Positions 11,613 to 41,886 of a stretch of 57,216 bases of DNA are shown one piece after another. A program made the position numbers and the translations under genes. Positions within the stretch are counted from its first letter, which is position 1, and each line of letters starts with the position of its first letter. This stretch comes from an uncultured Candidatus Saccharibacteria bacterium (lineage in GTDB: Bacteria > Patescibacteriota > Minisyncoccia > Phycocordibacterales > UBA2100). The stretch spans positions 1 through 57,216 of the forward strand of contig CAYRHX010000006.1 of the NCBI GenBank assembly GCA_964424265.1, in the 5' to 3' direction. The notes beneath the pieces were generated by a model. It worked only from the letters and a program-made list of their open reading frames with translations. It was not told where the DNA came from and did no database searches.

Positions 11613-11653
11613 CCGCCGCGGTTTTCTTCGGAAAACTCGCGGCGGAGCTTTTT
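11613..11653 (+). terminator. Rho-independent terminator
   Basis: CCGCCGCG-GTTTTCTTCGGAAAACT-CGCGGCGG with an inner stem and UUCG loop, followed by AGCTTTTTA. Confidence 0.6.
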
Positions 11654-11708
11654 ATACAGACACAAGCAACTTTTTACGACAGATACCACTTATACACGAT
11701 ACCTCTAC

Positions 11709-11740: not shown

Positions 11741-12328
11741 ATGGGAAATATAGAGCATGCGGTGCGGAAGCGAGTGAAAAAACAGAATATTCAGAGGGCA
11801 ATTCTCGCCGCAATCAAAGTCGCGGGAATTCTTTCACTTGCAATGATGGCGCCGAACACACTCCAGCTACTCAAGTATGCTCCGGGTATGCGTTCGCGTT
11901 ACGCTACTCGCGTCTCTGAATCGCTGCGTCGGCTTGAAAGCAAGGGTTTGATCAAGATCGAGGGGCGGGGTCCGCGACAGCAGGCACGCCTTACGAAGCG
12001 CGGTGAATCATTACTCGCTCGGCTTGAGATCGGTTCGGCAAGATACAAACCTCCCGCTCGATGGGATAGGAGGTGGAGAATTGTCATGTTTGATATTGCC
12101 GAGAGTCGTCGACCGGATCGCGATCGCCTCCGCCACCTCCTCGTCTCTATTGGGTTCCATAAATTGCAGGATAGTGTGTGGATCTTTCCGTATGATTGTG
12201 AAGATGTTGTCGCGCTTTTGAAGGCGGATTTTGCATTGGGTAGAGAGGTGCTTTATGTGGTGACAGATCAGGTGGAAGGAGAGCGATGGCTTCGAGGACT
12301 TTTTAAACTTCCCTCGGACGAGGTGTAA
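11741..12328 (+). CDS. PaaX-like / Cas2-fold C-terminal domain regulator with an N-terminal wHTH-like region
   Basis: 195 aa. WDRRWRIVMFDIAESRRPDRDRLRHLLVSIGFHKLQDSVWIFPYDC matches the W-D-x-x-W-R-I-V-x-F-D-I-P/A-E...R...L...GF..LQ.SVW..P pattern of PaaX-C-like proteins common in small-genome bacteria. Confidence 0.6.
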   Translation: MGNIEHAVRKRVKKQNIQRAILAAIKVAGILSLAMMAPNTLQLLKYAPGMRSRYATRVSESLRRLESKGLIKIEGRGPRQQARLTKRGESLLARLEIGSARYKPPARWDRRWRIVMFDIAESRRPDRDRLRHLLVSIGFHKLQDSVWIFPYDCEDVVALLKADFALGREVLYVVTDQVEGERWLRGLFKLPSDEV

Positions 12329-30107: not shown

Positions 30108-30130
30108 ATAACGACTTCGTAAGTCGTTAT
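30108..30130. repeat. REP-like hairpin ATAACGACT-TCGTA-AGTCGTTAT (orphan copy)
   Basis: 9-bp stem and 5-nt loop in the 37-nt gap between ybeY and rpsU. It has the same ATAACGAC...GTCGTTAT arms as the hairpins flanking the RAYT gene at 41.1-41.9 kb. Confidence 0.6.
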
Positions 30131-33715: not shown

Positions 33716-34306
33716 ATGGCATGGATACTTGTAGGTTTAGGCAATCCTGGAGAAGAGTACGACTCGACGCGGCACAATGCCGGGCGCATGGCGCTCGATT
33801 TCTTTGCAAAAGAGCAGAAGTTTGGCGATTGGAAGGAGGATAAGAAGGCTAAAGCGCGTGTCGCGAGTGGTATGGTGGGGAAAAATACTGTCGTTTTGGT
33901 CAATCCCGACACCTTCATGAATAAATCGGGCACTGCAGTTCTGAAATTTGTAAAAAGTCTGAAGGCAGCGGAGCGTATGGTGGTGCTCTACGACGATATG
34001 GATCTGCCGCTTGGCACGATCAAGCTCTCGTTTGATAGGGGAAGTGGCGGGCACAAAGGCGTGGAGTCGATTATGCGAGCAGTGAAGACCAAAAAGTTTG
34101 TTCGTGTGCGTATCGGCGTCTCGCCGACGACCCCGGGAGGTACGCTCAAGAAGCCGCACGGGGAGAAAGACGTGATTCGATTTATTCTCGCGAAGTTTAA
34201 ACCTGCTGAGCTGGCAGAATTAAAGCCGTTGTGGAAAAAGATCGGGCAGGCACTGCAGGTGATCGTGTCGGAGGGTCGCCAACGCGCGATGAATCAATTC
34301 AACTGA
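33716..34306 (+). CDS. pth: Peptidyl-tRNA hydrolase
   Basis: ORF trimmed to ATG 33716 (MAWILVGLGNPGEEYDSTRHNAG). Confidence 0.9.
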   Translation: MAWILVGLGNPGEEYDSTRHNAGRMALDFFAKEQKFGDWKEDKKAKARVASGMVGKNTVVLVNPDTFMNKSGTAVLKFVKSLKAAERMVVLYDDMDLPLGTIKLSFDRGSGGHKGVESIMRAVKTKKFVRVRIGVSPTTPGGTLKKPHGEKDVIRFILAKFKPAELAELKPLWKKIGQALQVIVSEGRQRAMNQFN

Positions 34307-34336
34307 AAAGCCGCCGCGCAAAGCGCGGCGGCTTTT
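34306..34336. terminator. Bidirectional rho-independent terminator between convergent pth and rpsA
   Basis: AAAAGCCGCCGCG-CAAA-GCGCGGCGGCTTTT. Confidence 0.75.
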
Positions 34337-34350
34337 CTTTCTCACACAAT

Positions 34351-35481
34351 TTAGTTTATCGGCTTGAGAGTCATTCTCCTGTCTTTTGGCTCGAAGAAGG
34401 TGATAGTGAATGGGTATACCTTGCCGAGCTCGAGTTTGGCTCGGAGGTCTTCTTCATTTGCAAATTCCGAGACATGCACAAGCCCCGCGACCCCTTCTTC
34501 GATGGAGGCAAGTGCGCCGTGTTTGTTGTATTTGATAACTACAGCTTCCACGCGTTGATCCTTCTTGTATTTCGCGCTGGCCGCCTTCCATGGATCGTCG
34601 AGTAGCGCTTTGATCGAGAGAGAGATCTTGCCGTCTTTGATCTCGATGACCTTCACCTTCACGCGATCACCCGCGCGGTAACGCGTCTTTGGGTTTTCCA
34701 CGAGCGCCCAATCCATTTCAGAAATGTGCACAAGACCTTCGAGGCCTTCTTCGAGCTTCACGAACACGCCAAATTCTGTTGCACCGGTGATGACGCCGTC
34801 GAGCGCGTCGCCGATATGATATTTTTCCACCAGCGAAGAACGCTCTGTAGTGCCAGCGCCTCGCTCGCTGAAGATGAGCTTCTGCTCCTTTGGGCTCGCT
34901 GTGATGACCATGACTTCGATTTTTTGTCCGACCATCTTCTTGAGCTCGACGAAAATCTTGTCTTTATCGCCATCAGGTACGCGCGGATAGTGCGCTGGTG
35001 CGAGCTGGGACGCGGGGAGGAATCCGGCGAGGCCGTTCCACGTAATGATGAGGCCACCCTTATTTGCATCGGTGACAGGAAGCTCGAAGACCGTCTTCTT
35101 CTGCATCGCCTGCTCTGCTTCATTCCAAATGACAGCCTGGCGCGCTTCGCGCAGAGAGACTTCTATGTAGCCATCGGCGTTGTCGAATCCCACGACCTTC
35201 GCGGTCACGGTGTCGCCGATGTTTACATTCTTCAATGCCTCACGAGCTGAGAGGTATTCGCGGCCATAGATGATGCCGGTACCAAACGGCGCGAGGTCGA
35301 TAAATACGCGTGCACGGCCGATCGCGACCACCGGGCCTTCTACCACGTCATCTACTATCGGGGGAGTCGCCGATTTCTCGAGCAACTCTGCCATCGGTCC
35401 CTGCTTTGCCAAGACTTCGGAGGGCATGCCCTCTTCGCCTTCTTCAGTTAAAACAACCTTCTCCTCTTTTTCTTTTACCAT
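34351..35481 (-). CDS. rpsA: 30S ribosomal protein S1 (four S1 domains)
   Basis: 376 aa. Repeated S1-domain pattern (G..V.G.V......G.FV....EGL.H.SE). Confidence 0.9.
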   Translation of the reverse strand: MVKEKEEKVVLTEEGEEGMPSEVLAKQGPMAELLEKSATPPIVDDVVEGPVVAIGRARVFIDLAPFGTGIIYGREYLSAREALKNVNIGDTVTAKVVGFDNADGYIEVSLREARQAVIWNEAEQAMQKKTVFELPVTDANKGGLIITWNGLAGFLPASQLAPAHYPRVPDGDKDKIFVELKKMVGQKIEVMVITASPKEQKLIFSERGAGTTERSSLVEKYHIGDALDGVITGATEFGVFVKLEEGLEGLVHISEMDWALVENPKTRYRAGDRVKVKVIEIKDGKISLSIKALLDDPWKAASAKYKKDQRVEAVVIKYNKHGALASIEEGVAGLVHVSEFANEEDLRAKLELGKVYPFTITFFEPKDRRMTLKPIN

Positions 35482-35640
35482 TGATATTTTGGTCCGGACT
35501 ATCTCGCTTGCGCTACCGTCTCTGAGTGCGAGGAAGTATTACCGAACGCCTATTAATTAATAATCGCCCCTCAGGGCGTATGCACAATATATATGATGAG
35601 TACTCAAGGCGCAAGCTCACGTATAATTTGAAAAACCCGT

Positions 35641-35674
35641 AAAAAAAGAACGTGTACCCGAAGGTAACCGTTCT
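35641..35674 (-). terminator. Rho-independent terminator for a minus-strand transcript coming from the ORF-free region
   Basis: The plus strand reads AAAAAAAGAACGTGTACCCGAAGGTAACCGTTCT. On the minus strand this is AGAACGGTTACC-UUCG-GGTACACGTTCT followed by U7. Confidence 0.6.
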
Positions 35675-35753
35675 TAGGTTGCCCCCGGGCGGGGAATTCT
35701 CTACTAGAGCAACCTATCTCGGAGAATATTCCTTTATTGCAAAAGGTCAAGTG

Positions 35754-36049
35754 AGCAGAAAGTCTGGGTGTGTATAAAAATGGTGGGGGATGGTAGAGCT
35801 GGCCGAAGCGCAGATATCCATCCCCCGGTATTTGGCCTTGCGGCCTTCGGCTCACGAGAGCCGAAATCGTGCGCGGCATGCCGCGCTGGTCCTCTTGCCC
35901 GGGCGCATCAGTGCGCCCGGTATGTTAGCAGCTGTCGATCACTTTTTGCCCACCTCCTTTCCGAATTGGAAAATGCCATTGTCTACGATGATTACGGGCT
36001 CATCGTTGACTCTGGCACCCGCCACGCTACTCTCTCTACTCATTCGTCA
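35754..36049. ncRNA. Candidate structured RNA, module 1 (family unknown, strand unresolved)
   Basis: No credible ORF. Consecutive GC-rich hairpins at 35785-35826, 35834-35845, 35848-35863, 35871-35886 and 35899-35920. Bounded by motif P (GGGTGTGTATAAAAAT, 35766-35781) and motif Q (CGCCACGCTACTCTCTCT..CTCATTCGTCA, 36020-36049), both repeated in module 2. Confidence 0.4.
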
Positions 36050-36198
36050 ATTCTCTCCGCGGAGGATTTTTTGTTATCTAAAAGTATTTACGGTAGAAGC
36101 GGACGATGGATTCGGAAGCTCTGTAATCGGTGTTGTTTGTAACGTGCTATAGCACGTCGTAAACAACACTTCTTACTCGAGACATCGGGGTTAGACAA

Positions 36199-36567
36199 GC
36201 AGAAAAAGTTAGGGTGTGTATAAAAATTGAAAGGTTGCGGCGTCTGGATCGAAGATCCAATACAGTGAGATGTCATCTCACTGTATAAAAAGATCGAAGG
36301 CGGTCCCAAACGGGAGCCGCCTTCTCATCGTCGGGCAGGGTAGGAACCGGGATTACCCCGCCTCCCGGAAAAAAGATCGTATAAGAGGCCCACAAAGTGC
36401 AAATGTTTGTTGGGCTTCCAACCAGATTTGCACCAATGCGTTGGCGTACCAGGCCCACCTCGGTTTTCTTCCTCCATTAAGTTTGCTCCAAGTGCCACGC
36501 ACGGCAGAGAGTGTGCACAACACCGAAGACTGTCGCCACGCTACTCTCTCTCTCTGCTCATTCGTCA
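36199..36567. ncRNA. Candidate structured RNA, module 2 (paralogue of module 1)
   Basis: Motif P at 36212-36227 and motif Q at 36534-36567. The shared internal GCCCACCTC is at 36453-36461 (35948-35956 in module 1). Hairpins at 36261-36285, 36296-36324 and 36397-36433. Confidence 0.4.
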
Positions 36568-36609
36568 GCCATTCGGAGTGGGGTAGGGTTTCTGCTATAC
36601 TGGCAAAAT

Positions 36610-37014
36610 ATGATTGAACACATCAGCAAGCTTTCAGGTGCACAGCAAAATGCACTCGAAAATATCGGTGTGGTTTTGCTCTATCTGCATGGTTCCGTGG
36701 CTTCTGGAAAGGCGCGAAGTGATAGTGATGTCGATGTGGCGGTGCTTTTTGCACAGACTCCGCGCGATACAGTGCAGGCGACCACGAACATCGTCGAGGC
36801 ACTGAGGGGATACGAAAGTCCGCGTGAGATGGATGTTGCGATACTCAATGATGCGAGTCCACTTCTTAAGCAAAGTGTAGCGGCCCACGGAGTGTTACTT
36901 TTTGCACGGAGCGAGCAAGACGATCTTGAGTTTCAAATTCGCACCATGCACGAGTATGAAGCTTCTCGTCGCATTGTTCGTATCGGGCAGGAGGCGATAC
37001 TTGCACGCATATGA
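36610..37014 (+). CDS. MNT-type nucleotidyltransferase (antitoxin of an MNT-HEPN pair)
   Basis: ORF trimmed to ATG 36610 (MIEHISKL...). LYLHGSVASGKARSDSDVDVAVLF fits the GS-x10-D-x-D nucleotidyltransferase motif. Confidence 0.85.
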   Translation: MIEHISKLSGAQQNALENIGVVLLYLHGSVASGKARSDSDVDVAVLFAQTPRDTVQATTNIVEALRGYESPREMDVAILNDASPLLKQSVAAHGVLLFARSEQDDLEFQIRTMHEYEASRRIVRIGQEAILARI

Positions 37015-37433
37015 CCGAATTTGCCAGAGGACAGCTTGCAGAGAAAATCACGCAATGCGCTGAGGCTCTTGCCGATTTGCAGAAGTATCAAGCGGTAGGA
37101 TCGCTCGAATATCTTCGGGCGCATCCCGATACCTACTATGCGGTGTGTTTTCGATTCATTAGTGCGATCGAGTCTCTCTTCGATGTCGGGCAGTACATCC
37201 TCTCAGATCGGGACGTTCGGGCAGAAACGCAACGCGAGATTCCGGCACTTCTTGCTCGAAAGGGCGTAATCGACGAGGGAATAGCCCAGAGATTTGCGAA
37301 TATGTACGGCTTTCGTAATCGGCTCGTGCATGCCTACGGGACGCTTGATGATGCGAAGGTTGCCGATTTTCTCAAAAACAATCTTGGAGATATAGTACAG
37401 ATTCTCGCGACAGCAAAAACTTACTTACAATAA
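37011..37433 (+). CDS. HEPN-domain (DUF86/HepT-like) toxin
   Basis: 140 aa. ATGA overlap with the MNT gene. R-x4-H motif in FRNRLVHAYG. Confidence 0.85.
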   Translation: MTEFARGQLAEKITQCAEALADLQKYQAVGSLEYLRAHPDTYYAVCFRFISAIESLFDVGQYILSDRDVRAETQREIPALLARKGVIDEGIAQRFANMYGFRNRLVHAYGTLDDAKVADFLKNNLGDIVQILATAKTYLQ

Positions 37434-37440
37434 AAATACT

Positions 37441-38061
37441 ATGATTCTCACATTTCACGAAGGGGCATGTATTCGCGCGAGCGCGGGCGACACGACGCTC
37501 GTGTTTGGTCCCGTTTCAAAAGCTTCGAAGAATTTTAAGCCGACCAATTTTGGGGCAGACGTAGCGTTCGTCTCGTTCAATCACCCAGACATGAATGGCA
37601 CTCACGAGGCGGGGCGCGGTGATAAAGAGCCGTTCATTGTTTCTGGCCCTGGTGAATATGAGATAAAGGAATCGACTGTAGCGGGATTCAGCACGGGTTC
37701 TACCTATGGCGGGACGCCGCGCATCAATACCGTTTATTCCGTGGCATTCGACGGTATGTCTATTTTGTACCTTGGTGCGCTCGGCGATCTCGATCTTCCC
37801 GGCGATGTGCTCGAGATGGATTCTCCCGATGTGCTCATCGTGCCGATCGGAGGTAATGGTGTGTTGAATGCGGCGGAGGCGCAGAAGCTTGCGGTGAAGC
37901 TCGAGGCGAAAATCGTGATTCCGATTTTGTACGACGACAAGTCTCTCAAGCAATTTTTGAAAGAATCGGGAGAAGAGAATGTAAAACCGGTCGACAAACT
38001 GACGATCAAGCCGCGTGATCTTGTGGGTAAGGAGAATGATGTGGTTGTCCTCAGTTCATAG
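37441..38061 (+). CDS. MBL-fold (beta-lactamase-like) protein with a degenerate metal motif
   Basis: 206 aa. Overall UPF0173/MBL-like layout (TLVFGP...VAFVSFNHPDMNG...VIPILYD), but the canonical HxHxDH is replaced by NHPDMN. Confidence 0.55.
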   Translation: MILTFHEGACIRASAGDTTLVFGPVSKASKNFKPTNFGADVAFVSFNHPDMNGTHEAGRGDKEPFIVSGPGEYEIKESTVAGFSTGSTYGGTPRINTVYSVAFDGMSILYLGALGDLDLPGDVLEMDSPDVLIVPIGGNGVLNAAEAQKLAVKLEAKIVIPILYDDKSLKQFLKESGEENVKPVDKLTIKPRDLVGKENDVVVLSS

Positions 38062-38618: not shown

Positions 38619-41120
38619 ATGGCACGCAAAAACGAGGAAAAGGAGCCAGCTGACGCGGTGCCAAGACGAACCGAGGGGGTAATCTCCCGAAGCATCACGA
38701 CCGAAATGCGCGAATCGTATCTCGACTATGCGATGTCGGTGATCACGGCTCGCGCGCTTCCTGATGTGCGCGACGGGCTGAAGCCGGTGCACCGCCGGAT
38801 TTTGTACGCGATGCAAGAGGCGGGACTCACAGTATCTGCGAAGACCCGAAAATCAGCGACAGTGGTAGGCGATGTGCTCGGCAAATACCACCCGCACGGC
38901 GATGCGTCTGTCTATGATGCGATGGTGAAAATGGCGCAGGATTTTACGATGCGCTATCCGCTTATCGTTGGGCAAGGCAACTTCGGCTCGATCGACGGCG
39001 ATGGAGCGGCGGCTTACCGATACACGGAAGCCAAGATGTCGCGACTCGCGGGCGAAATGATGCGCGATATCGACAAAGAGACTGTGCTTTTCACTCCTAA
39101 CTACGACAACACCAAGATGGAGCCATCTGTCTTGCCTGCGGCAACGCCCAATTTGCTTTTGAACGGCACGCTCGGGATCGCGGTCGGTATGGCGACCAAC
39201 ATCCCGCCACACAACTTGCGCGAAGTGTGCACAGCGTCCATTCACCTTATTGAGAATCCGGGTGCGACGACCGACGACCTTTTGCAGTTCGTACAGGGGC
39301 CAGATTTCCCTACGGGCTGCATCGCGTTTAATCAAAAAGACATTGCGCACGCGTATGCGACAGGCCGCGGAGGCGTGGTCGTGCGCGGAGACGCCGAAAT
39401 CGTGGAAGGGAAGAAGGGGGACTACCAAATCATCGTCACCTCGATCCCTTTTCGCGTCAACAAATCCGATCTGCTCACGAAAATCGCCGACCTTGTGCAC
39501 GAAAAGAAGCTCGAAGGCATCCGCGACATCCGCGATGAATCGACCAAAGACATTCGGATTGTGATCGAGCTCAAGAACAACGCAAACGCGCAGACCGTTT
39601 TGAATTATCTCTACAAGCACACGCAAATCGAGGAAACCTTCCACTACAATGTCGTGGCGCTCGTCGATGGCGTCCCGCAGACGCTCTCACTCAAGGCTTT
39701 GCTCGAATATTTCATCGCGCACCGTAAAGATGTGGTAACAAAGCGCGCGCGATACGATCTCAAGGTGGCGCAAGCCCGCGAGCATATATTGCTCGGTCTC
39801 AAGAAGGCGCTCGATCATATCGACGAAATCATTAAACTCATCAAGAAGAGCAAGGATGTGGATGAGGCGCGGACGGGCCTCATGAAAGTGTTTAAATTTT
39901 CCGAAATTCAGGCACAGGCGATTCTCGACATGCGTCTGCAAAAGCTTGCGGGCCTCGAGCGCAAGAAGATCGAAGATGAATTGAAAGAGGTGCAGGCGCT
40001 CATCGAGGAGCTCACGGCCCTTTTGAAGAGTGAGAAGAAGCTTATGGAGCTCATCAAGAAGGAGATTCGCGAAGTGATCGAAAAATATGGCGACGATCGC
40101 CGCACGAAAATTGTGAAGCGCGGAGCCACGATCCTTTCGGCGGAAGATTTGATCGCCGACGAGGAGTCGGTGCTCGTGCTGACGCAAGGCGGCTACATCA
40201 AGCGGACGAATCCGAGCGAATACCGCCGTCAAAAGCGCGGAGGAGTGGGTGTCGTCGATCTCGATACAAAGGAGGAAGATTTTGTTACTCAATTTTTGAC
40301 CGCGAGCGCGCACAGCGACCTCCTTTTCTTCTCCGATCGCGGCAAGGTGTATCAGCTCAAAATGTATGATTTGCCGGAAGGGAAGCGTGCCACGAAAGGC
40401 AAGTCCATCATGAATTTCATTTCGCTCGAGCAAGGCGAACAAATCACCTCGATTCTCGCGATGCCAAAGGAGAAGAAGGCCGTCGATGGGCTCTCGCTCC
40501 TCATGGTGACGCGGGGTGGTACGGTGAAGCGCGTCGCGGCTTCACAATTTCACGAAGTGCGTCGTAGCGGATTGATCGCCATCGGACTCGACAAGGGTGA
40601 CGCGCTTATTTCCGCTCAGTTTGTATATACAGGAGACGATGTGGTGCTTGCGACATCGAAAGGGCAGGCGATCCGTTTTGCCGCCAAGGATGTGCGCGAG
40701 ATGGGCCGACAGGCTGCGGGTGTGCGCGGAATGAAGCTGAAAAGTGGCGATTCAATAGTGGGCTCAGGCGTCGTTCCCAAATCTGCGAAGGATGCCGAGT
40801 TGCTCGTGCTTTCATCGACCGGTTACGGTAAGAAAACTAAACTCACCGGATACAAAACGCAGGGAAGAGGCGGAGGCGGCATGAAGACTATGTCGATCAC
40901 GCCCAAGACCAAACAGCTCGTGGGAGGCGCCGTTGTTTTGGCTCCCGGCGGCGAGCTTGTTGCGATGTCCAAAAAGAGTCAGACGATCCGCACGGGACTC
41001 GATGAGATCCCCACGCTTTCCCGCGCGACCCAAGGCGTACGCGTAATGAAAATGCGCGAAGGCGATCAGGTAGCCTCGTTTGTGGTGTTTGAATCAACAG
41101 AAGGATCCTCACAGCTATAA
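38619..41120 (+). CDS. gyrA: DNA gyrase subunit A
   Basis: ORF trimmed to ATG 38619. [37 protein letters not shown], catalytic [10 protein letters not shown], and C-terminal beta-pinwheel repeats. No gyrB is adjacent. Confidence 0.95.
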
Positions 41121-41170
41121 CGACCTACGATGTCGTTAGAGATACCATAACGACATCGTAGGTCGTTATG
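41118..41170. repeat. REP doublet: two inverted copies of the TAACGAC-N7-GTCGTTA hairpin
   Basis: TAACGACCTACGATGTCGTTA (41118-41138, overlapping the gyrA stop) and CATAACGACATCGTAGGTCGTTATG (41146-41170). The cores are exact reverse complements of each other, so the pair forms one long palindrome. Confidence 0.7.
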
Positions 41171-41174
41171 CGAG

Positions 41175-41858
41175 TTATTCGAGAAAGCGGACGGGGAAGG
41201 ATTCGTTGGAGTGCTTACTCATACTGCCGAGATACGCGGTCGTCTCTTTCTCAATGTTTCCGATCGACGCTTTGAAAAAATCAGTTGTAAGAATCGATGG
41301 AAAATTTCGACGTCCGCAATAGTCTGCATAACTACTCCACCGATAGTGGCGCAGCTGATCTTTCGCCTTTGCGGAATCGACGATCCGGGCGCTTCTCCAG
41401 GATTGAGCTCCGGAGACGTAGTCGAGGGGATTCAGGTGAATATAGTGCAAAATGTGCAGAAAATGAGTCTCCGAGTGAATATGTACTTTCTTTGTGCGAC
41501 CTTGGAAGACGTAACCACTGCGCCGGTATCGCGCGTTAAAGTATTTCGCATAACCCACATTCAATTTTCTAATAAAGGTCGTTATGCCGTTGTCGACAAG
41601 TTCTGAGAGAAGAAGGTGATAGTGGTTTTTCATGATGCACCATCCGTGGATATTTACGACGCGTCCTTTCCCATAACGACCTCGTATGTCGTTAATTTCT
41701 TCCATTTCATGTTCAAGGAGATAGGTGGTGTTATTGGCAGGGCGTGCGGTGTTGAACAATCCCAGGCCGTGAACGAATCTAAACCGATCACGATCGTCGA
41801 GAAAAATATTTCGCTTCTCGACCCCCCTGTTGAGCACATGGTAAAGTTCCACCAGCAA
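41175..41858 (-). CDS. REP-associated tyrosine transposase (RAYT; IS200/IS605 Y1-transposase superfamily)
   Basis: 227 aa (TTG start as called; a GTG two codons later is also possible). YHVLNRG...IF, HUH motif NHYHLLL, catalytic Tyr region HYIHLNPL. Flanked by REP hairpins on both sides. Confidence 0.85.
   Translation of the reverse strand: MLVELYHVLNRGVEKRNIFLDDRDRFRFVHGLGLFNTARPANNTTYLLEHEMEEINDIRGRYGKGRVVNIHGWCIMKNHYHLLLSELVDNGITTFIRKLNVGYAKYFNARYRRSGYVFQGRTKKVHIHSETHFLHILHYIHLNPLDYVSGAQSWRSARIVDSAKAKDQLRHYRWSSYADYCGRRNFPSILTTDFFKASIGNIEKETTAYLGSMSKHSNESFPVRFLE
41673..41694. repeat. REP hairpin copy inside the RAYT coding sequence
   Basis: ATAACGACCTCGTATGTCGTTA is identical to the first 22 nt of the copy at 41864-41886. 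On the coding strand it encodes ...NDIRGRYG... Confidence 0.6.
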
Positions 41859-41863
41859 AGTAT

Positions 41864-41886
41864 ATAACGACCTCGTATGTCGTTAT
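41864..41886. repeat. REP hairpin immediately upstream of the RAYT start
   Basis: ATAACGAC-CTCGTAT-GTCGTTAT, 6 nt from the called start codon. Confidence 0.7.

Follow-up and report, generated by a model that had tools for sequence, protein, structure and literature searches.

Candidate tandem transcription units in a hairpin-dense, gene-free region beside rpsA in a patescibacterial genome

A gene-free stretch lies between an rpsA-like gene (ribosomal protein S1) and a MNT/HepT/Lactamase_B_3 operon in a 57,216-nt piece of contig CAYRHX010000006.1 (assembly GCA_964424265.1, from an uncultured Candidatus Saccharibacteria bacterium), which is referred to below as the window. The stretch holds two direct, paralogous modules, each filled with GC-rich hairpins and framed by two shared end motifs (P and Q), and an initial annotation had proposed the modules as novel structured RNAs. 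The features behind that proposal are real, and the region is neither a known RNA nor a recognisable pseudogene, but the pattern is more readily accounted for by ordinary transcription signals that surround small, fast-evolving units than by a novel family of structured RNAs.

Specifically, the region may be an array of paralogous, accessory mini transcription units on the minus strand, placed by recombination and now non-coding or decayed, a reading of middling confidence. Three short tandem units would be read towards rpsA, namely module 2, its paralogue module 1 and a unit of about 75 nt (unit A). A module would start at a sigma-70-type promoter in motif Q (TTGACG, a spacer carrying an (AG)n repeat, then TAGCGT), continue through a 5′ stem-loop, a purine-rich Shine-Dalgarno-like box (GAGGTGGGC) and a series of GC-rich stem-loops with a terminating or stabilising role, and end at an intrinsic terminator, motif P being its U-tract and tail. 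The modules would have come to stand in tandem by recombination, unequal or allelic, that used the conserved blocks of the promoter and the terminator. Most likely, the window's modules either give small non-coding transcripts with structure or are decaying remains of units built around very short open reading frames (micro-ORFs), because these ORFs are gone or cut to five codons in the window and the promoter spacers, at 15 and 19 nt, depart from 17 nt.

Shared ends of the modules and their strand

Motif Q carries much of this argument. Its 18-mer CGCCACGCTACTCTCTCT occurs twice (36020-36037 and 36534-36551, vs 0.05 expected), each time followed by CTCATTCGTCA (36039-36049 and 36557-36567) after a (CT)n run that is 4 nt longer in the second copy, so that 18/18 plus 11/11 positions are identical between the two. 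Read on the minus strand the motif becomes TTGAC(G/T)–N–GAGTAGC(G/T)T, and in this degenerate form (Q′) it was found in eight copies in six lineages (two each in the window and the related locus L138, and one each in the related loci L126, L133, L141 and L195). When both strands of about 138 kb of Kaiserbacteria DNA were scanned, Q′ proved confined to the region equivalent to the gene-free stretch, the only other matches being two look-alikes in coding sequences that lack the GAG. Three versions, that of L133/L141, one of the two in L138 (L138a) and that of L195, keep TTGAC(G/T) and TAGCTT exactly 17 nt apart around unrelated spacers (TATATATAGAGAGAGAG, GATACATCGCGAAGGAG and AACCAAGAAGACGGGAG, respectively), and divergence sets in immediately downstream of TAGCTT. 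The conserved block of the window extends from TTGAC to 4 nt past TAGCGT. Across copies and lineages, 4, 5 or 6 units of the (AG)n repeat give a spacer of 15, 17 or 19 nt; the two window copies thus differ from 17 nt by a single repeat unit, module 1 being shorter (15 nt) and module 2 longer (19 nt), and the L126 copy also has 15 nt. Since the hexamers are kept around a free 17-nt spacer in three lineages, the pattern is that of a sigma-70-type promoter and not of an RNA end, and motif Q on the minus strand looks like such a promoter. Outside these loci, the exact 18-mer gave three unrelated single matches in a genome collection (Clostridia, Desulfovibrionales and Hymenobacter), which were judged to be due to chance, and the full Q motif was absent from a viral collection, in which the degenerate Q′ and the arms of a palindrome described below gave only unrelated matches at chance level.

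Motif P, AAAGT(C/T)(T/A)GGGTGTGTATAAAAAT, was found at 35759-35781 and 36205-36227 and is identical at 21/23 positions, including all 16 of its core GGGTGTGTATAAAAAT (starting at 35766 and 36212). The core has no other mismatch-free match in the window; with up to three mismatches there are four matches vs 0.22 expected, the additional two having three mismatches each. On the minus strand the motif would supply the U-tract and tail of a hairpin terminator; because the sites are missing from the output of a strict consensus scan, this role is put forward as a putative one. A relaxed terminator scan found three strong sites (35650, 35780 and 36293), all on the minus strand, and a single weak site on the plus strand; the minus-strand sites, for which the opposite strand has no equivalent, combine hairpins of -19 to -23 kcal/mol with runs of U5-U7 within 2-5 nt. 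In L126, L130, L133, L138, L141 and L195 the rpsA promoter has an equivalent terminator immediately upstream of it, and the form consisting of a hairpin plus UUUUUAUA also closes a plus-strand gene elsewhere in the window (11613-11660, site at 11649) as well as units in L126 and L138. Downstream of P1, unit A is a predicted transcript of about 75 nt running from a promoter-like TTGACC-16-TATTCT to the hairpin at 35674-35636, and L126, as read by eye, has TTGACC-16-TAAACT at the matching place after a P-like tail. Two cUUCGg loops and one GCAA loop form on the minus strand only, the G-U pairs sit on that strand and its folds are slightly better. Of the two orientations that the initial annotation had left side by side, the minus strand, towards rpsA, is therefore favoured.

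Two further observations concern P. A likeness of its GAAAGUCUGGG to RNase P was dropped, as no RNase P model scored. The 16-mer has at least 120 matches in a metagenome collection, judged to be chance with the possible exception of one 2156-nt contig (L086), where positions 1822-1848 match the extended P1 (GCAGAAAGaCTGGGTGTGTATAAAAAT) over 27 nt with one mismatch; that match lies in frame inside a gene for an HExxH protein (HEYAHH motif) and similarity goes no further, so that, with a chance probability roughly estimated at 0.001-0.01, it is treated as a coincidence.

Between the end motifs, both modules contain GCCCACCTC (35948-35956 and 36453-36461), which by comparison with AAAGGAGGTGGGC in module 1, CCGAGGTGGGC in module 2 and the related AAAGGAGGGTCGCCATG and GAGGGAGGTTGGCGATG is probably the remnant of a Shine-Dalgarno box. 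In alignments, the module 1 box falls on the region of Shine-Dalgarno box and start codon in both L126 (AAAGGAGGGTCGCCATG) and L195 (GAGGGAGGTTGGCGATG). The equivalent regions of the relatives contain nine Shine-Dalgarno boxes followed at 4-10 nt by ATG in the rpsA direction vs one on the opposite strand, the expectation from shuffled sequences being 1.8 +/- 1.3 (maximum 6). The ORFs that they lead comprise 3 to 35 codons, or 149 and 176 amino acids (aa), and the short peptides are not conserved and, by eye, not hydrophobic. The two longer ORFs (176 aa, L126 5205-5735; 149 aa, L138 2349-2798) are unrelated, have Shine-Dalgarno boxes and, by eye, N-termini resembling signal peptides, and gave no Pfam match; they may encode lineage-specific secreted proteins. 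No Shine-Dalgarno box with an ATG was found in the window's own modules, where module 1 offers at most a GTG and five codons.

The other genes of the window use different signals. Even a weak Shine-Dalgarno-like 4-mer precedes only 7/50 of them. Many have an extended -10 element of the TGCTAnnAT type, often 6-12 nt before the ATG, and the same type precedes tRNA genes (45873, 46901 and 50359); the housekeeping promoters are of the form TGCTATAnT. Extended -10 elements so close to the ATG suggest leaderless or near-leaderless mRNAs.

The variable region between rpsA and the lactamase gene

S1 homologues identify the lineage as Candidatus Kaiserbacteria (Patescibacteria, or candidate phyla radiation, CPR). 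Two loci of the same species (L001 and L002) are 100% identical to the window over the region, so that three independent assemblies are alike; ERR3094295 and ERZ27247817 are sources from which this sequence was assembled. More distant relatives, with S1 proteins 85-94% identical, keep the order gyrA, small ORF and Lactamase_B_3, followed in divergent orientation by rpsA and pth, and differ widely between Lactamase_B_3 and rpsA, where the intergenic length ranges from 222 to 1567 nt with differing contents. The shortest version (L129, 222 nt) holds two promoters and the rpsA leader and nothing else; L130 (448 nt) and L133 (548 nt) each hold a short ORF unit, L138 (1481 nt) has two units, one of them with the 149-aa ORF, and L126 (1567 nt) has a single module-like unit together with the 176-aa ORF. 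The divergent promoters of rpsA and Lactamase_B_3 (here MNT-HepT-Lactamase_B_3) enclose a hotspot of insertions and deletions. The rpsA leader is 81-88% conserved with L126 and L129, divergence beginning upstream of it, and an extended -10 promoter stands at the other end. This element (TGCTATACT) is, judging from its position across lineages, the native promoter of Lactamase_B_3, the same element being found directly before that gene in L126, L129 and L133 and before MNT in L143. The MNT-HepT genes of L143 lie behind the same TTCTGCTATAAT promoter, and the region upstream is minimal and module-free. The initial annotation had raised a possible co-occurrence of the modules with the MNT-HEPN pair, and this does not hold: L143 has MNT-HepT without modules, and L126 has a module without MNT-HepT. 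Given this, and the variability of the hotspot, the modules are accessory DNA that does not travel with MNT-HEPN.

Immediately behind the Lactamase_B_3 promoter is a hotspot of another kind, in this case for toxin-antitoxin insertion (window 36590-37440, L141 2517-2984, L143 32-903). A pair is present there in the window, L143 and L141 (in the last a YafQ/YoeB-like pair at the position occupied by MNT-HepT in the window), and none is present in L126, L129, L130 or L133. At the opposite end, a small hairpin (CGCCCCTCAGGGCG) in the conserved rpsA leader precedes an AT-rich run, and the leader may be an S1 autoregulatory one.

Tandem duplication left a recognisable trace. The sequences beside Q1 and Q2 align across the whole MNT/lactamase promoter up to the position of the start codon (score 58 vs 23.8 +/- 4.2 when shuffled), which points to the duplication of a block of Q plus promoter whose upstream promoter copy, TTTTTTGTTATCTAAAAGTAT, has since decayed (its counterpart after Q2 is TTTCTGCTATACTGGCAAAATAT). 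The two direct paralogous modules described initially thus stand, with the correction that the repeat is longer than their given extent and includes the decayed promoter copy after Q1. Recombination between alleles would account both for this copy and for identical ends around unrelated cores. As for the cores, that of module 2 shows a weak but significant similarity (z about 4.5) to the L126 unit, which has the same place beside the lactamase promoter. The terminator keeps its outer stem and its tail and has a changed inner stem, and it is the sole hairpin that the two share. The core of module 1 resembled nothing with which it was compared; one weak orthologue was obtained for module 2 and none for module 1. 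RNAalifold on six units from five lineages gave zero consensus pairs, Q alone being conserved, with too few orthologues for a powered test of covariation, and exact-motif scans of genome and metagenome collections gave no further module members.

Between the modules lies a solitary 40-nt palindrome, GTGTTGTTT..GTGCTATAGCAC..AAACAACAC, whose centre resembles the TGCTATAnT promoters of the genome, so that it may serve as a promoter/operator or mark the boundary of a cassette. Copies that are 80-83% identical flank a PaaX_M-like gene in L126, and members of the same family flank it in L195-L197. The family has the form GTGTTGTTT-N-TGCTATAGC-N-AAACAACAC (L126 7213-7252 and 7859-7898; L195 4905-4944 and 5550-5589). 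In two relatives this gene, of 193 aa, separates rpsA from pth as an insertion with a palindrome on each side, and the window's own PaaX_M-like gene (11741-12328, 46% identical) is without these palindromes.

Coordinates of the features in and around the gene-free stretch (positions in the window)
Feature	Positions	Strand	Remarks
S1/rpsA-like gene	34351-35481	minus	376 aa
Gene-free stretch	35482-36609		between rpsA-like gene (minus) and MNT/HepT/Lactamase_B_3 operon (plus)
rpsA 5′ leader and promoter region	35482-35601	minus	outside the modules
Small hairpin CGCCCCTCAGGGCG in rpsA leader	35565-35578	minus	listed by strict terminator scan
Unit A terminator-like hairpin	35636-35674	minus	cUUCGg loop, then U7; -19 kcal/mol (relaxed scan)
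Unit A promoter-like site	35723-35750	minus	TTGACC-16-TATTCT (promoter scan)
Motif P1	35754-35781	minus	reads AUUUUUAUACACACCC..CUGC; putative U-tract and tail after module 1 terminator hairpin
Putative module 1 terminator hairpin	35785-35826	minus	9-bp GC stem with inner cUUCGg hairpin, then ACCAUUUUUAU; -21.6 to -23.1 kcal/mol
Four successive perfect stem-loops, module 1	35834-35845, 35846-35865, 35871-35886, 35899-35920	minus	first with GCAA loop when read on the minus strand
Module 1 Shine-Dalgarno-like box AAAGGAGGTGGGC	35925-35959	minus	GTG 10 nt on; 5-codon ORF 35942-35925
Imperfect 18-bp stem-loop	35974-36017	minus	presumed 5′ end of module 1 transcript (inverted repeat and folds)
Motif Q1, promoter-like	36020-36050	minus	TTGACG (36050-36045), 15-nt spacer with (AG)4, TAGCGT (36029-36024)
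Decayed promoter copy TTTTTTGTTATCTAAAAGTAT	36067-36087	plus	matches TTTCTGCTATACTGGCAAAATAT promoter following Q2
Solo 40-nt palindrome	36130-36169		between the modules
Motif P2	36199-36227	minus	second putative terminator tail, here behind merely a weak hairpin
Hairpin GGATCGAAGATCC and perfect 13-bp palindrome (36260-36286)	36246-36286	unassigned	
Putative module 2 terminator	36283-36324	minus	hairpin 36296-36324, then GAUCUUUUUAUAC; -21 to -23 kcal/mol
Nested hairpin, module 2	36397-36433	minus	
Module 2 degraded Shine-Dalgarno-like box GAGGTGGGC	36453-36461	minus	no ATG after box
Motif Q2, promoter-like	36534-36568	minus	CTGACG (36568-36563), 19-nt spacer with (AG)6, TAGCGT (36543-36538)
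Extended -10 promoter TGCTATACT	36593-36601 (within 36590-36609)	plus	stops 8 nt short of MNT ATG
MNT/HepT/Lactamase_B_3 operon	36610-38061	plus	

Hairpins, coding potential and competing explanations

Much of the initial description proved accurate. On the provisional gene map the stretch is the longest non-coding one in the window (1128 nt vs 604 nt for the runner-up), P and Q occur twice each in the order described, GCCCACCTC is at both of its sites, the CT run differs in length and the listed hairpins are present. The region contains six perfect stems of at least 7 bp vs 0.54 +/- 0.74 (maximum 4) in 300 dinucleotide shuffles, an excess of about 11-fold, and with 5.3 hairpins per kb it exceeds the remainder of the window (about 1 per kb) some fivefold. 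For the two modules, z-scores of the minimum free energy (MFE) reach -6.6 and -4.4 when the minus strand is folded; for the plus strand they are -5.6 and -3.8. Neither module matches a known RNA family: Rfam 15 at its gathering thresholds (with models for RNase P, tmRNA, SRP, 6S, OLE, GOLLD, HEARO, ROOL and raiA included) reported no family in 35300-36800, and in the whole window only six tRNAs. When matches were accepted up to E<=10, the top one was FinP with 23.4 bits vs a threshold of 45, the rest being miRNA and lncRNA noise.

The region is not strictly ORF-free, as had been stated, because mechanical ORFs of 115-124 aa exist on its plus strand; these have no Pfam match and, among 5.8 billion proteins, no homologue but themselves. 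Pfam gave no match for seven ORFs of the region on both strands, a 120-aa ORF called by the gene caller of one assembly found only itself among 5.8 billion proteins, and tblastn with the cassette proteins and peptides of the relatives returned only noise. A decayed protein gene was therefore rejected, no frame tried having shown similarity by any of these three routes, and on this point the initial annotation was borne out.

Several kinds of mobile or repeated element were considered as well. An element derived from a miniature inverted-repeat transposable element or an insertion sequence (IS) was rejected, since P and Q are direct and unlike ends and further copies were not found in the window, the loci of the relatives or the genome and viral collections. 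Terminal inverted repeats formed from P and Q were discarded too, the sole complementarity between the ends being 11 nt of low complexity at chance level. An integron with attC sites was considered only; an integrase is absent nearby, and every unit has its own promoter-like site.

The reading as tandem minus-strand units has points against it. The -10 hexamer of Q′ (TAGCGT or TAGCTT) lacks the TGn extension typical of promoters in this genome, the spacers of 15 and 19 nt are not optimal, one L138 copy is spaced at 27 nt, and a consensus promoter scan listed neither window copy of Q. The strict terminator scan, which demands a U-run within 0-2 nt, missed the three sites because their U-tracts are 3-5 nt off or their stems are interrupted. 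The window's own modules lack the Shine-Dalgarno box with ATG of the relatives. P stays identical for about 16 nt past the U-tract, which a pure terminator leaves unexplained, and this part could belong to the upstream region of the next promoter or to read-through RNA. Finally, P and Q are almost identical between the copies although the cores next to them are unrelated, which fits plain decay poorly, and the perfect conservation of both (including these 16 nt) argues for some selection. A stronger version of the same reading, in which lineage-specific, fast-evolving structured small RNAs or micro-ORF transcripts with strong Shine-Dalgarno boxes are made just upstream of rpsA from an unusual -35-dependent promoter with (AG)n slippage as a switch, is a bold and decidedly improbable one; if true, the possible targets of these RNAs would include ribosomes or S1-dependent initiation.

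The same evidence bears on four other explanations. The region could be inert recombination debris, made up of relics of old terminators, an orphan operator palindrome and a dead promoter with no functional transcript. This is unlikely but deserves weight, as the hotspot is highly variable with entire units missing in L129 and L143, the promoter copy behind Q1 has decayed, the solo palindrome has relatives flanking a PaaX_M gene elsewhere, the promoter spacers are off-optimal and the ORF starts of the relatives are lost in the window; yet P and Q that are identical between copies whose cores cannot be aligned are not a pattern of neutral decay, the perfect stems require a recent origin or selection, and three independent assemblies are 100% identical. 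Alternatively, the modules could be plus-strand small RNAs or a long leader, with P (TGTGTATAAAAAT) as an extended -10-like promoter and the RNA ending at a CU-rich Q, whose CCUCC and CUCUCU tracts could pair with purine-rich targets; the weak hairpin plus T6 after Q1 would be the terminator of this RNA. Sequence is conserved upstream of the TATAAA of P and diverges just downstream, as for a promoter, a weak hairpin followed by UUUUUUG does stand after Q1, the z-scores are strongly negative on this strand too, and the plus-strand CACCTCCTTTC in module 1 equals the usual 16S 3′ tail (a consensus that may not be the host's). What makes this improbable is that TG abuts TATAAA in P without the one-base gap of the TGnTAnnnT promoters of this genome, that a terminator is absent after Q2 and after the Q copies of L126 and L133, that the strong hairpin plus U-tract sites point to the minus strand, as do the G-U pairs and the loops of UUCG/GNRA type, and that what the lineages retain of Q is a pair of hexamers separated by a free spacer, which does not resemble the 3′ end of an RNA.

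The hypothesis closest to the initial one is a lineage-specific class of structured RNA, in which the (AG)n of Q′ pairs with CUUUCUGCU of P′ in a terminal helix that encloses a variable body of several hairpins. MFE and centroid folds of both modules on the minus strand do close the ends by a helix of 11 to 14 bp, in which the three differences between the modules all keep pairing through G-U, and the conservation of P past the U-tract and the minus-strand z-scores fit as well. By our own estimate, however, an inverted repeat of such low complexity (AG against U/C) is at chance level in 1.1 kb; the helix was not found in the L126 orthologue, and the want of consensus pairs in six units, of an Rfam match and of other members in the exact-motif scans of genome and metagenome collections adds to the case against, so that this class is rated as quite improbable. 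The premise that conserved ends around a divergent core are the mark of a structured-RNA family is not supported by the comparison, with Q being promoter-like, P terminator-like and the relatives' units containing short ORFs. Still more remote is an arrangement like type I toxin-antitoxin or cis-antisense pairs, in which a micro-ORF mRNA made from Q′ on the minus strand would meet a convergent plus-strand antisense RNA made from P. Tandem repeats of about 450-515 nt, promoter-like elements facing each other at both ends, highly structured RNA with possible 5′-3′ pairing and the Shine-Dalgarno-led short ORFs of the relatives are all compatible with it, but the peptides of the relatives are, by eye, neither conserved nor hydrophobic, the window modules have an ORF of five codons at most and the plus-strand promoter is doubtful; it is highly improbable. 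Of all these, the accessory minus-strand units remain the preferred reading.

Neighbouring palindromes and known systems

Palindromes are found elsewhere in the window too. A perfect 15-bp one (GAAAAGCCGCCGCGC AAA GCGCGGCGGCTTTTC, 34305-34337) lies between the convergent pth and rpsA and looks like a bidirectional terminator. A 227-aa ORF (41175-41858, minus) matches Pfam Y1_Tnp (IS200-like) with 27.5 bits vs a cut-off of 23 and is flanked by palindromes ATAACGAC..TCGTA..GTCGTTAT, one of them with a 22-bp stem, and a further copy stands at 30108-30130; with its position beside gyrA, the combination looks like the arrangement of repetitive extragenic palindromes (REPs) with a REP-associated tyrosine transposase (RAYT). 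An ORF occupies the equivalent place in the relatives L133, L134 and L129. REP/RAYT palindromes were rejected as an explanation for the gene-free stretch, where the hairpins all differ and are unlike ATAACGAC..GTCGTTAT at 30108, 41117, 41146 and 41864.

The finding does not overturn current knowledge. To our knowledge, mapped promoters, terminators and small RNAs are almost lacking for CPR bacteria, and the result is a concrete map of candidate transcription signals in one of them, in which a 1.1-kb ‘non-coding’ block of a streamlined genome is accessory and recombination-prone and not a conserved RNA gene. Two features are worth noting, namely the occurrence of Shine-Dalgarno-led micro-ORF units in a genome otherwise without Shine-Dalgarno sequences, and the (AG)n repeat in a putative promoter spacer.

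Among known systems, REPs and bacterial interspersed mosaic elements, with the palindromes of RAYTs, share with the region dense extragenic palindromes in a genome that encodes a Y1 transposase flanked by palindromes (41117-41886), but the hairpins of the region differ from each other and from the transposase palindromes and are not repeated elsewhere in the window. The ldr/rdl loci of Escherichia coli are likewise tandem intergenic repeats of about 500 nt with their own promoter, a short ORF (here in the relatives) and structured RNA; unlike them, the window lacks a conserved hydrophobic peptide, the cores are unrelated between repeats and an antisense RNA is only putative. The hif genes of Haemophilus influenzae have a phase-variable promoter with a dinucleotide repeat, (TA)n, in its spacer, and the (AG)n repeat between the hexamers of the window similarly sets the spacer length, whereas length heterogeneity is not seen (three assemblies are identical), the repeats are short (4-6 units) and the promoter is putative. 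Compared with ordinary small RNA or micro-ORF units, the window differs in that its promoter is not the TGCTATAnT type of the genome's housekeeping genes, its spacers are 15 and 19 nt, and four or five extra perfect stem-loops stand ahead of the terminator; it resembles them in its -35-like TTGACG and -10-like TAnnnT, which have a spacing of 17 nt in three lineages, its end in a GC hairpin with a U-tract, its unit length of 250-370 nt and the Shine-Dalgarno-led short ORFs of its relatives.

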